DNA of 64,000 nucleotides from a virus (lineage: Duplodnaviria; Caudoviricetes): the IMG/VR virus record IMGVR_UViG_3300037714_000131, positions 19,911-83,910 of that record; one strand, given 5' to 3'. Positions 13,918 to 16,991 of this stretch are shown one piece after another. Position 1 is the stretch's first letter; each line of letters begins with the position of its first letter. The notes beneath the pieces were generated by a model. The model did not search any database, was not told the DNA's origin, and was given only the letters and a program-made list of their open reading frames with translations. Made by a program: the position numbers and the translations under genes.

Positions 13918-14031
13918 AAAGCGAAAGCCGGGAACAGGCCCGTCAGCCTTCCCGACTTGTGAAGTCCCATCAATGTAGCGTCCCGCGTTCCAGTTCCCCC
14001 GCGTATCCGAGTAGCAATCGTAGAGGTAATC

Positions 14032-15264
14032 ATGACTCAACGCAAGGATCTATGGTGGGTTGCTCCGGCATCGCTGGCGCTGCTTATCCTGATTGGCGTC
14101 TCTGGCGCGGGGAACTTTCTGTATGGCCTGTCATTCGGCGGTCCAATCATTGGTGCTGCGTCGATCGCTTTCGACTTCCTCAAGATCGTCGCGCTGATCG
14201 GCGTTTTCGTCTTGTGGCACAAGCGATACCCGCTGCAAGCCATCGCGCTGTTCATGCTGTTTATCGGCGCGACCGGCTGGTCGATGTTTTCGGCTGTCGG
14301 TTTCATGTCAAGCCAGTTTGCCACGTTGCAAGATGACCGTGGAAAAACGGCATCACAATGGCAAGCGCTGACATCGCAGATCGATCAGTTGCAAGAGCGC
14401 CGCAAGCATGTCGAAGCGGCGCGGCCGCAGAACACCGTACGGGCTGACATCGACGCTCTGCTTCGTGTACCGGGCATAAACGGTTGTCAGAAAATCGACG
14501 GCCCGGTGACGGCACAGCACTGCCCGCAATACGACAAGCTGAAAGCGGAGCTTGGCAACGCCGAGGCGGCGGCATGGTTGGACGGCAGACTTGACGAACT
14601 GCGTCAGGAATTGCGCAAGACTGATCGCGTTACTGTCATCGATCCACGGACGGACTCGATAACGGCGCTCAGTGGCGTTGCGGCTGCAAGCGTTGCGCTC
14701 TTCATCAAATTTTTCTTTGCAGGGCTGATCGAGTGCGCAACAGCATTCGGCCTTTGGGCTGTCTGGTCACCGTTCTTTGGCCGCAAGATCGTCAGAGAGC
14801 CGTTGTCAGCCCCGGAAGCCGATAGCGCTCCGATCGTTGCCAGCGAACCGCCCAAGTCCCTGACAACGCCTGCTGGCCCGTCTGGAGGTACAAGGAAGAC
14901 TGGCAATGCTCTTGGCGACATGGTCAAGCGCGAGATGGCGTTGTCAGTTCAGTTGTCAAAGCCTGAAAAACCAACGCTTACCGTTGTCAGAGACAAGATC
15001 GTCAAGCCGGAAGAAATCGCCCGTGCATGGTCGCTGGAATTCGCCCCTCCTGGCACTGGTCGCCGCGTTGTCAGTGCTGTCAGCGCCCGCTGGCATCACA
15101 GCCAATGGTGTTCGATGGCCAATGTCAAAAAGCTTGGCCCGCAGCAACTCGGTCTGGCGTTGAAAAAGGTCGGCGTCGGCATCGACCGTTCGAGCGGAAA
15201 GGGCTCGACTTACATCTTTAACCCGATGGAGCAGGAGGTTGAGAAGATCGCCGTTTATGGCTGA
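14032..15264 (+). CDS. Multi-pass membrane protein with coiled coil and C-terminal soluble domain
   Basis: About 4 N-terminal TM helices, a Cys pair, a later TM, then a cytoplasmic tail. Confidence 0.75.
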   Translation: MTQRKDLWWVAPASLALLILIGVSGAGNFLYGLSFGGPIIGAASIAFDFLKIVALIGVFVLWHKRYPLQAIALFMLFIGATGWSMFSAVGFMSSQFATLQDDRGKTASQWQALTSQIDQLQERRKHVEAARPQNTVRADIDALLRVPGINGCQKIDGPVTAQHCPQYDKLKAELGNAEAAAWLDGRLDELRQELRKTDRVTVIDPRTDSITALSGVAAASVALFIKFFFAGLIECATAFGLWAVWSPFFGRKIVREPLSAPEADSAPIVASEPPKSLTTPAGPSGGTRKTGNALGDMVKREMALSVQLSKPEKPTLTVVRDKIVKPEEIARAWSLEFAPPGTGRRVVSAVSARWHHSQWCSMANVKKLGPQQLGLALKKVGVGIDRSSGKGSTYIFNPMEQEVEKIAVYG

Positions 15265-15456
15265 TCGGCCGTGTCTGGCTTGGGGGCTTGGACACGGCGA
15301 GGCTGGTGGGCTGTTGGCAGCAGCCCATCCAGAATTTCGCAGAGTTTGATGAATGACTTGGGGGCTTTTGGCAACCCGCCCCGGAGGCAGAGGCTCAAGA
15401 AGATGAGCCGAAAACTGAAACACAACATTTAGCGGTGGCGAGGAGGCCACTTACAA

Positions 15457-15900
15457 ATGCAAGAGATATATAACCGCAAATCATATTCGGCGCAAGCCTT
15501 GGATGAACTGCCGCTAGACACCGTCAACATCGGTGCCGATGGCGACGACTTCACGGCGATAGACATCGGCCCCAAGCTTGCGCCACCGGAGCAGAGACAA
15601 GCGCTTTTCGCCCGGTTCAACGCCGCCCCCGATGCAAAGTTCATCTACCGTGGCATCATCAGGGAATGGATCACATCCTGCTACAGCGCCAAACACGCGG
15701 TTTTCTCGCTTCGTGTCTGTGGCCTGATTGCAGACCCGTACACTGGAGATCCATATGATCTGATGTCTCGGGCCGCTGAAACCGAATTCCCCGGTGTAGC
15801 GCTTCCTGAGCGTGTCTCAGCCCCTATTCAACCAGAATACGTCAATCCCGATCTTGTCGCCGCTCTTGCGCCGGCTCGCACGGTTGGAGGCGCAGCATGA
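15457..15900 (+). CDS. Hypothetical protein
   Basis: SD GGAGG; the stop overlaps the tnpB start. Confidence 0.65.
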   Translation: MQEIYNRKSYSAQALDELPLDTVNIGADGDDFTAIDIGPKLAPPEQRQALFARFNAAPDAKFIYRGIIREWITSCYSAKHAVFSLRVCGLIADPYTGDPYDLMSRAAETEFPGVALPERVSAPIQPEYVNPDLVAALAPARTVGGAA

Positions 15901-16991
15901 AACTAACATACAAGTTTCGCCTTCGCGACAGGCACTCGTCTGAATTGAACCGGCAAGCACGGGCGATAAACTACGTCTGGAATTACTGCAACGAAACACA
16001 GCAGAAAGCAGTCCGATCCGGCCGCAAATGGCTAACGGCCGTCGATCTCCAAAAGCTAACATCCGGGTCGTCGGAGATGCTCGGACTTTCAGCGCAAAGC
16101 ATCTGCAAGGTCTGCCAGCAATACGACCGTTCACGAAAAACAAAGCGCAAACCGTGGCTCCGTTGGCGCAGCCGCAAATCGCTTGGGTGGATACCGTTTC
16201 ATGCTGAGTCCGTGTCGTTCGACGGCGAGACATTCAAGTTTCGTGGGCAACACTATGACCTGATGCACCAACGCGATTTTCCGGAATGCGCAAAGTTCGG
16301 TGCAGGCTCGTTCAATCAGGATTCGAAAGGCCGCTGGTACATCAACGCCGTTGTCGAGGTCGCGACTGCCGACCATGCCCCGCTCACCCGCGTCGGCATC
16401 GACCTTGGCCTGAAAGATCTCGCCACACTGAGCGACGGTCGGAAGATCGAAACTCCTCGCTTCTATCGCAAATCCGAGGCTGCGCTTGCCGTCCTTCAGC
16501 GCGCCCGGAAATCAAAGCGCGTTCGCAACATTCACGCCAAGATCGCGAACCGTCGCAAGGATTTTCTACACAAGGCCAGCACCGCGCTGGCGAAGGAATA
16601 CGGGCTGATCATCATTGGCGATGTCAGTCCGTCGAAGATTGCTCGGACTCATATGGCAAAGAGCGTGCTCGATGCCGGATGGGCGGACTTCAAGAGCCAG
16701 CTTTCGTACAAGGCAACTATGCATGGCGGAAGCGCTCTTGAGGCCCGTGAGCGCAACACTTCCGGGGACTGTTCTTCTTGCGGTGCAAGGAGCGGGCCGA
16801 GAGGCTTGAAGGATCTCCGAATAAGAGAATGGGACTGCGGCGAATGCGGAGCGGCGCACAACCGCGACGTGAACGCTGCGCAGAACATTCTCCGTCTCGG
16901 GCTGGAGACGCTTGCAGAAGGAGCCCGGAAATTTGCACCGGGAGCAGCCACCACTGGCTGGAAGGGCTTTCACACGGGAGAGCTGGTATGA
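15897..16991 (+). CDS. tnpB: TnpB-like protein, operon-embedded, RuvC-II rearranged
   Basis: VGIDLGLK, AKSVLDAGW, zinc finger and NRDVNAAQN. The canonical Glu position reads IIIGDV; a Glu occurs instead in ARERNTS. Confidence 0.88.
   Translation: MKLTYKFRLRDRHSSELNRQARAINYVWNYCNETQQKAVRSGRKWLTAVDLQKLTSGSSEMLGLSAQSICKVCQQYDRSRKTKRKPWLRWRSRKSLGWIPFHAESVSFDGETFKFRGQHYDLMHQRDFPECAKFGAGSFNQDSKGRWYINAVVEVATADHAPLTRVGIDLGLKDLATLSDGRKIETPRFYRKSEAALAVLQRARKSKRVRNIHAKIANRRKDFLHKASTALAKEYGLIIIGDVSPSKIARTHMAKSVLDAGWADFKSQLSYKATMHGGSALEARERNTSGDCSSCGARSGPRGLKDLRIREWDCGECGAAHNRDVNAAQNILRLGLETLAEGARKFAPGAATTGWKGFHTGELV

Follow-up and report, generated by a model that had tools for sequence, protein, structure and literature searches.

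A tnpB gene in a 64,000-nucleotide (nt) stretch of phage DNA, here called the window (positions 19,911 to 83,910 of the IMG/VR record IMGVR_UViG_3300037714_000131, Caudoviricetes), was analyzed together with its flanks and its relatives. The interpretation to which we give an even chance of being right is that of a TnpA-independent TnpB-omegaRNA cassette that has no left end, belongs to a phage-enriched lineage with a rearranged RuvC-II site, sits in line at a translationally coupled gene junction of the replication region and would behave in a way resembling RNA-guided homing. The cassette looks like a selfish, possibly homing-type passenger and not like a domesticated phage regulator. An earlier reading of the letters alone (the sequence-only reading) had taken the gene for a domesticated, phage-owned RNA-guided protein and not for a transposon passenger; an invariant rearranged active site with an intact D-E-D set, a junction that is polymorphic between phages and homologues at scattered sites count against that view. 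The gene is intact and under purifying selection, the putative RNA scaffold at its 3' end is conserved with covariation, and the insertion is dispensable, related phages holding either an empty junction or a degenerate copy.

Cas12 descends from TnpB, itself a compact genome editor, and the persistence and spread of very many transposase-less TnpB copies are still debated. The junction described here offers a natural series at one phage site: empty, occupied by an intact gene, and occupied by a copy that an HNH-type nuclease has overwritten. It also departs from the textbook picture of IS200/IS605 elements in that it combines the missing left end with a flanking target duplication and a built-in signal for translational coupling. 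If the cassette indeed homes between co-infecting phages, RNA-guided nucleases would act as viral homing endonucleases without a transposase; if it does not, the locus would be nothing out of the ordinary, a stranded TnpB from a rearranged clade already known.

Catalytic site and relatives of the TnpB protein

The tnpB product matches the NCBIfam profile guided_TnpB (NF040570; E 2e-64, 218 bits at a cut-off of 100) as well as the Pfam families OrfB_IS605 and Cas12f1-like_TNB, with PF01385 and PF07282 above their gathering scores, and PHROG transposase families match it, too. Key residues are D169 in RuvC-I (GIDLG) and D324 in RuvC-III (NRDVNAAQNI), together with a C4 zinc finger formed by C292, C295, C314 and C317. 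The sequence-only reading had noted that the canonical RuvC-II glutamate is replaced by glycine in IIIGDV and that another glutamate is present in ARERNTS, and this is real: in a HMMER alignment to the structurally solved ISDra2 TnpB, which covers the RuvC and zinc-finger core (residues 152-336, E 3e-29), G241 sits opposite the catalytic E278, and E285 is located six residues before C292, such that ERNTSGDCSSC fits the ExxxxxxCxxC alternative-glutamate (Ealt) pattern. Ealt TnpBs with this pattern are treated by Yoon et al. 2023 (PMC10711439), and for RuvC-II-rearranged (RIIr) clades, Altae-Tran et al. 2023 (PMC10691335) describe the exchange of glutamate for glycine with a compensating glutamate, predict activity and note that some rearranged branches are virus-specific.

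We aligned 52 relatives, of which viral or phage-like contigs contributed 27 and bacterial genomes 25. The acidic residues D169, E285 and D324 and the zinc-finger cysteines are invariant in all of them (52/52), and the position of G241 is occupied by glycine in 51 and by serine in one, which upholds membership of a RuvC-II-rearranged clade. Judged from these alignments, the window TnpB is in the RuvC-II-rearranged, or Ealt, state and is predicted to be active. The ratio of nonsynonymous to synonymous substitution rates (dN/dS) is 0.16-0.22 for the window gene against the phage-borne genes L035, L031 and L033 (L numbers designate loci of relatives) and 0.13-0.22 across all six pairs of these four genes. 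As a trait of the lineage, the combination of the glycine with Ealt carries no information on domestication or inactivation because it is common to multicopy bacterial insertion sequences (IS) with hairpin ends. The same phage contains a second tnpB outside the window (G000:C1:9311-10438, corresponding to L002:1030-2157). It stems from a different lineage, is 40% identical to the window gene in the C-terminal half, has a HTH_OrfB N-terminus and carries glutamate at the canonical RuvC-II position (IAVEKL) and proline at the alternative-glutamate position.

More than 4,700 proteins match the window TnpB at E<=1e-60, the nearest with 73-81% amino acid identity. Among those relatives whose contigs were examined, to which all statements on gene neighborhoods refer, the nearest TnpBs are found at other sites in unrelated phage contigs, between unrelated phage genes, for example those for DnaB, ERF/YqaJ, Dam, integrase or ProQ-like proteins. 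The nearest phage-borne genes are co-oriented with the genes around them, usually begin 0-17 nt past the upstream stop or overlap it, and often overlap the next open reading frame (ORF). Across 185,579 prokaryote species, each represented by one genome, a single locus exceeds 50% identity (Sphingomonas, 60%), and the remaining loci, classic multicopy IS among them, reach at most 49%. In a maximum-likelihood tree, computed as a quick and not as a careful search and with sampling drawn from the viral collection, the window TnpB falls into an 18-member clade (Shimodaira-Hasegawa-like approximate likelihood ratio test, SH-aLRT, 96) whose members, apart from the Sphingomonas locus, come from viral or phage-like contigs (17). 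On the best-supported reading, the lineage is phage-adapted and, while catalytically rearranged, probably active. The sequence-only reading had itself stated that homologues at scattered sites with recognizable IS ends would speak against phage ownership; the homologues are indeed scattered, and such ends are recognizable in the wider clade.

Missing transposase, RNA scaffold and duplicated junction

The tnpB gene is part of a co-directional block with the order two unknown genes, a 147-aa gene, tnpB, a gene for a C5-cytosine methylase, a 130-aa gene, a gene for a DnaD-like loader and a primase/helicase gene. The tnpB ATG and the upstream TGA share an ATGA (15897-15900, preceded by GGAGG), and the tnpB TGA (16989-16991) and the methylase ATG likewise share one (16988-16991, preceded by GGGAGAG). 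Both stop/start overlaps had been recognized in the sequence-only reading and are real, and gene order and overlaps together bear out its description of a gene that is co-oriented in a phage operon and coupled on both sides. We consider 15897 the true start because the N-terminus MKLTYKFRLRD is conserved in homologues; given this conservation, the database gene call P0008 (304 aa) begins too late. Promoter-like or terminator-like sites were found neither within nor adjoining the tnpB module.

The claim that a left-end hairpin and a tnpA gene are missing proved correct as well. The C-terminus of the upstream protein (GG.A directly before the stop) is common to five homologues, the alignment extending to the last residues (...ALAPARTVGGAA), and since native upstream coding sequence thus runs to the tnpB ATG, a hidden left-end hairpin is ruled out. 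Profile searches of the complete phage genome, an 83,910-bp record with direct terminal repeats of which the window is a part, yielded neither a Y1 TnpA (PF01797) nor a serine recombinase (PF00239), while control genomes were matched. With neither transposase nor left end, the cassette is unable to move by the IS200/IS605 peel-and-paste route. More distant clade members have a left-end hairpin 40-80 nt before the ATG in addition to recognizable right ends. In a multicopy IS of the same rearranged clade from a Malikia sp. metagenome-assembled genome (MAG; L065-L067 and L069), a small Arc/ribbon-helix-helix-like ORF is present about 150 nt upstream of tnpB and its stop overlaps the tnpB start (ATGA), so a stop/start-coupled tnpB start is native to the family. 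A bioRxiv title of 2026, 'Arc represses gene expression in IS605-family transposons', may be compared.

An alignment of 14 relatives reveals a common block in their 3' regions, in which a first hairpin is followed by the motif GAAGGAGCC, by a second, variable hairpin and by GGAGCAGYCAC; similarity ceases beyond it. In an RNAalifold analysis of six short-form members, the first hairpin (P1) pairs 16893-16898 with 16905-16910 and shows compensatory double changes in each of its pairs (6/6), and it is supported likewise in the alignment of all 14 sequences. The stem of the terminal hairpin is maintained via differing sequences in L016, L028, L033 and L031. Four nearly identical Malikia copies diverge exactly past the equivalent ...GATGTCAA, which places the right boundary of the element at the end of this motif and the end of the window scaffold at 16951. 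Covariation thus supports a scaffold with two hairpins; the omegaRNA anatomy and end proposed in the sequence-only reading are not confirmed. The outer stem proposed there, GAGCCC/GGGCTT, would pair scaffold with flank across 16951, is absent from the minimum free energy fold and has no counterpart in homologues. TTTCAC (16969-16974), suggested as the RNA terminus, is not conserved, the family end being GGAGCAGCCAC at 16941-16951. The 14-nt segment that follows TTTCAC is no demonstrable guide and belongs to a relic in which the upstream gene's 3' end is duplicated; its role as the Shine-Dalgarno sequence (SD) of the methylase gene holds.

In nine of 16 clade members the tnpB stop is embedded in GAAGGAGYC-N5-6-ATGA, a built-in SD and start for the downstream ORF (L035, L107, L031, L106, L009, L007, L016, L005 and L015); in L106, the scaffold end encodes the first codons of the next gene. 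Two occurrences of the terminal scaffold piece CCGGAGTAGCCA(C/T), separated by about 60 nt, are found at L010:4236-4346, which suggests a tandemly duplicated right end. An Rfam scan of 15000-18000 returned no omegaRNA family. Its only match, to Sernc389, a Saccharopolyspora antisense small RNA, is at 16331-16591 on the minus strand, antisense to tnpB, and with 32.7 bits remains below the gathering score of 74; the seed of that family probably contains sequence derived from tnpB.

Past the scaffold, local alignments against the left junctions of the window and of L028 (a contig of a Hyphomicrobiales MAG) and against two empty junctions, L029 and L030, reveal two overlapping relics of the 3' end of the upstream gene. 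The first (16952-16967, CAC-TGGCTGGAAGGGC) resembles CAC-GGYTGGAGG.GC of that 3' end, and the second (16965-16991, GGCT..TCACACGGGAGAGCTGGT-ATGA) is another copy that continues through the ATGA and is most like the L029 allele. L028 has a single 19-nt copy (GGTTGGAGGTGGGCA-ATGA) after its scaffold, with two differences from its own left junction when two 1-nt gaps are allowed; this copy has the geometry that would be expected of a junction-directed guide. An imperfect direct duplication of the junction, about 19-30 nt long, hence flanks the insertion in both the window phage and L028. The left copy retains the upstream C-terminus and serves tnpB, the right copy retains SD and ATGA for the methylase gene, and by virtue of this duplication tnpB and the methylase gene both remain translationally coupled. 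As the window tnpB has lost the usual stop, its reading frame continues for 13 codons, past the scaffold end and across the relic, until it meets the methylase ATGA.

Shorter duplications occur elsewhere in the clade. The first 6-10 nt past the right end recur exactly at the left boundary in five of 24 loci (L004, 9 nt; L031, 8; L025, 10; L005, 7; L009, 6), 6-nt repeats being present in about 2% of non-cognate pairs that served as a control. At L031, comparison with distant homologues of the protein interrupted there reveals that the two repeat copies each encode native sequence (...ADERTA followed by E...), which makes this a true 8-nt target duplication; a search for an empty site of this insertion retrieved no viral relatives, only distant protein homologues. 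The Malikia IS copies have no flanking duplication. Y1 transposition makes no target duplication, and some phage-borne copies therefore seem to have arrived by a non-Y1 route. A general rule that the sequence after the scaffold copies the sequence before the ATG was rejected, since the local alignment was significant in L028, L004 and L022 only and borderline in L031.

The junction in related phages and competing explanations

L029 and L030 are natural empty sites in which the upstream gene is directly ATGA-coupled to the methylase gene (...ATGAcctatcgtg..., ...ggtgaggcATGAcctatcgtg...). L028 carries the same insertion at the same ATGA in the form of an in-frame chimeric ORF (L028:401-1162) made up of 28 N-terminal TnpB residues, a 177-aa insert and the TnpB C-terminus with RuvC-III (EW.C..CG..HDRDVNAAQNIL) and scaffold end GGAGCAGCCAA. 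The insert matches phrog_1035, endonuclease VII (E 4e-14), and has an H-N-H-like motif; an HNH-type nuclease has thus overwritten the tnpB interior, and the junction slot hosts selfish nucleases. With L029 and L030 empty and the window phage and L028 occupied, the insertion shows the presence/absence polymorphism between conserved genes by which homing endonuclease genes are recognized. The sequence-only reading had expected that deletion of the ORF restores a coupled junction. Coupled empty sites do exist; removal of the ORF alone is insufficient because the 36 nt from 16952 to 16987 are absent there, too. Synteny across phages, which it had proposed as a check, is not conserved: two junctions are empty, one is wrecked, and close homologues are non-syntenic.

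On the homing-type reading, operon read-through would transcribe the tnpB cassette, TnpB would release from the transcript's 3' portion, by processing, an omegaRNA with a guide at about 16952-16971, and the ribonucleoprotein would cut the DNA of a related phage bearing a matching allele of the junction between upstream gene and methylase gene. The cassette would then be copied in, or the competitor excluded, via recombination during co-infection, and the net behavior would be that of an RNA-guided free-standing homing endonuclease and not that of a regulator. The literature contains a discussion of 'non-restorative homing' by which IS605 would spread independently of TnpA (PMC13565253), and homing between co-infecting phages would be the most economical mechanism for the locus. 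It is conceivable, albeit doubtful, that the members of the lineage in general are RNA-guided counterparts of free-standing homing genes, that is, cassettes of tnpB and scaffold, without left end or TnpA, that enter phage operons at or near gene junctions by a non-Y1 route, create duplications of 6-19 nt, bring their own SD-ATGA to maintain translational coupling of the genes on either side and derive their guide from the duplicated junction.

Several results weigh against homing. With up to three mismatches, the predicted 20-nt guide finds only its own site in the phage genome. As a 16-mer it has 24 exact matches in IMG/VR, about the number expected by chance and with unrelated flanks, and as a 20-mer it has two independent, unrelated matches in metagenomes that we judge to be chance, one of them in a tyrosinase-like bacterial gene (20/20, in four soil-metagenome contigs carrying the same sequence). 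Agreement of the guide region with known junction alleles is imperfect (13/16 with a gap), the two distant empty alleles L029 and L030 are not matched, and the guide may be an orphan. The 5' flanks of relatives with and without a left end yielded no common transposon-associated motif, being CCAC- or GCAC-like at some sites and unrelated elsewhere. Homing by homologous recombination leaves the short target duplications flanking several clade members unexplained. Finally, the tnpB remnants in L028 are 76-80% identical to the window gene at the nucleotide level and the upstream genes 76%, and such equal divergence of remnant and flank fits vertical descent of one old insertion over recent homing. 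The L028 methylase gene (L028:1159-1935) is 86% identical to that of L029 (L029:1861-2535) and 68% to that of the window (16988-17800), and the L028 upstream gene is closest to that of the window. Taken together, the divergence and the methylase mosaic indicate an old, partly vertically inherited insertion in a mosaic neighborhood.

It is these data on which the idea of a stranded passenger can draw, i.e., of an old IS605-type insertion that has lost its left end and transposase partner, is immobile, persists only because it is translationally harmless, coupling having been restored by the junction duplication, serves no targeting at present and is bound to decay in the way seen in L028. The remnant divergence equal to that of the flank, the decay or replacement in L028, the guide-target searches that found none and the loss of the native stop in its SD-ATGA context, with 13 codons running into relic flank, all agree with it. 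We nevertheless deem it rather unlikely, as dN/dS values of 0.13-0.22 and fully conserved catalytic residues, zinc-finger residues and RNA scaffold across phage-borne relatives speak against it, and as the spread of the subclade over many unrelated phage contexts needs some mobility or selection. If the guide were instead directed at something unrelated to the junction, be it a host locus, a prophage or a competing phage, the system would be a weapon that works by exclusion and not by homing. Intact nuclease and scaffold, a guide unmatched in the phage's own genome and the 20/20 match in the tyrosinase-like gene would suit such a role; the number of 20-mer matches is as chance predicts for collections of this size, their flanks share no recurring motif, and the local junction is recognizable as the source of the guide region, all of which renders this explanation improbable.

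A domesticated regulator, in which the ribonucleoprotein binds a partly matching phage or host site and represses without cutting in the manner of TldR or of a short-guide TnpB, would be in keeping with an operon-embedded gene without mobility genes, and switching of TnpB between editing and repression by guide length has been engineered (PMC13507860). A 13-nt exact repeat (16973-16985, recurring at 24560-24572 a short way past a promoter-like site) could be cited in the same direction. As a guide match it was rejected because it begins 22 nt past the conserved scaffold end, where the predicted guide does not reach, and because repeats of this length arise by chance: of random 56-nt segments taken from the phage genome, 23% have an exact repeat of at least 13 nt elsewhere. 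In addition, the catalytic triad is intact clade-wide, unlike in TldR, related phages lack the locus or have a wrecked copy of it, and close homologues are without conserved synteny, so that we regard regulation as quite improbable. Least probable of all, and hardly to be reckoned with, is an ordinary non-autonomous IS200/IS605 element mobilized in trans by a host TnpA. The right-end hairpin and terminal motif are present and distant relatives are multicopy IS with both ends, but a left-end hairpin is impossible where native coding sequence reaches the ATG, and the target duplication that flanks the insertion is not made by Y1 transposition.

A TnpB-omegaRNA cassette of the homing type would have partial counterparts in several known systems. 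It is like the IS200/IS605 TnpB-omegaRNA of ISDra2 (8EXA, 8BF8, 8H1J) in the RuvC and zinc-finger core, in the right-end hairpin and in a scaffold overlapping the gene's 3' end and terminating at the right end, and differs from it in the glycine in place of the RuvC-II glutamate with relocation of the latter, in the absence of TnpA and left end, in the duplicated junction around the insertion and in stop/start coupling to phage genes on both sides. With the RIIr and Ealt TnpBs (PMC10691335, PMC10711439) it has the RuvC-II glycine, E285-x6-C292 and a DRDxN-type RuvC-III (NRDVN) in common, and it may belong to branch RIIr-4 or RIIr-5; an operon-embedded architecture without a left end and a junction duplication are not among the features given in the passages of these papers that were consulted. 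TldR proteins (PMC10705468) are likewise derived from TnpB, lack a transposase and occur in phage or prophage contexts; their RuvC is inactivated and their guides match promoters, whereas the window TnpB keeps D169, E285 and D324 and has no credible promoter match. The free-standing homing genes seg and mob of phage T4 ('intronless homing', PMC13565253) resemble the locus as selfish nuclease genes that are variably present between conserved genes, all the more so as the slot is taken by an HNH/EndoVII-type nuclease in L028; in the window TnpB, recognition would be RNA-guided, and homing is a proposed behavior. The alternative position of the RuvC-II glutamate is common to Fanzor and pro-Fanzor proteins, from which the window TnpB is set apart by D-L-G instead of D-P-G in RuvC-I (GIDLG), by its bacterial-phage context and by the absence of an IS607 serine recombinase.

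Feature coordinates and further observations

The features discussed above are compiled in Table 1.

Table 1. Positions of the tnpB cassette, its predicted RNA elements and the adjoining genes in the window
Feature	Position	Strand	Remarks
Upstream 147-aa phage gene, function unassigned	15457..15900	+	Native C-terminus ...ARTVGGAA-stop; stop overlaps tnpB start
Native junction copy CAC-GGTTGGAGGCGCAGC-ATGA	15879..15900	+	tnpB SD (GGAGG), upstream stop and tnpB start; homologous to L029/L030 empty junctions and L028 left junction
tnpB, 364 aa	15897..16991	+	Profiles, residues, conserved N-terminus; final 13 codons lie beyond scaffold end, in relic flank
Predicted scaffold hairpin P1, CGTCTC / GAGACG	16893..16910	+	Within tnpB 3' coding region; RNAalifold
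Predicted terminal scaffold hairpin, CCCGG ... CCGGG	16924..16942	+	16924-16928 pairs with 16938-16942 (RNAalifold)
Scaffold / right-end terminal motif GGAGCAGCCAC	16941..16951	+	Family consensus GGAGCAGTCAC, or ...GATGTCAA in distant members
Predicted guide segment	16952..16971	+	Position by homology only; first ~16-20 nt past scaffold
Two overlapping relic duplicates of upstream gene 3' end	16952..16991	+	CAC-TGGCTGGAAGGGC, then GGCT..TCACACGGGAGAGCTGGT-ATGA; methylase SD (GGGAGAG) and ATGA; local alignments
C5-cytosine DNA methyltransferase	16988..17800	+	PF00145, E 2e-41; translationally coupled to preceding ORF

The upstream 147-aa gene had no match in Pfam and PHROG, and a scan of its product against IMG/VR returned nothing. 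A BLAST search with 14000-19200 against phage records retrieved fragments of methylase and tnpB genes only and no related phage. One tnpB-bearing phage is represented in two samples (L033 and L034), and a comparison of L033:3900-3985 with L034 revealed a 76-nt deletion through which the gene just upstream of tnpB loses its 3' end.

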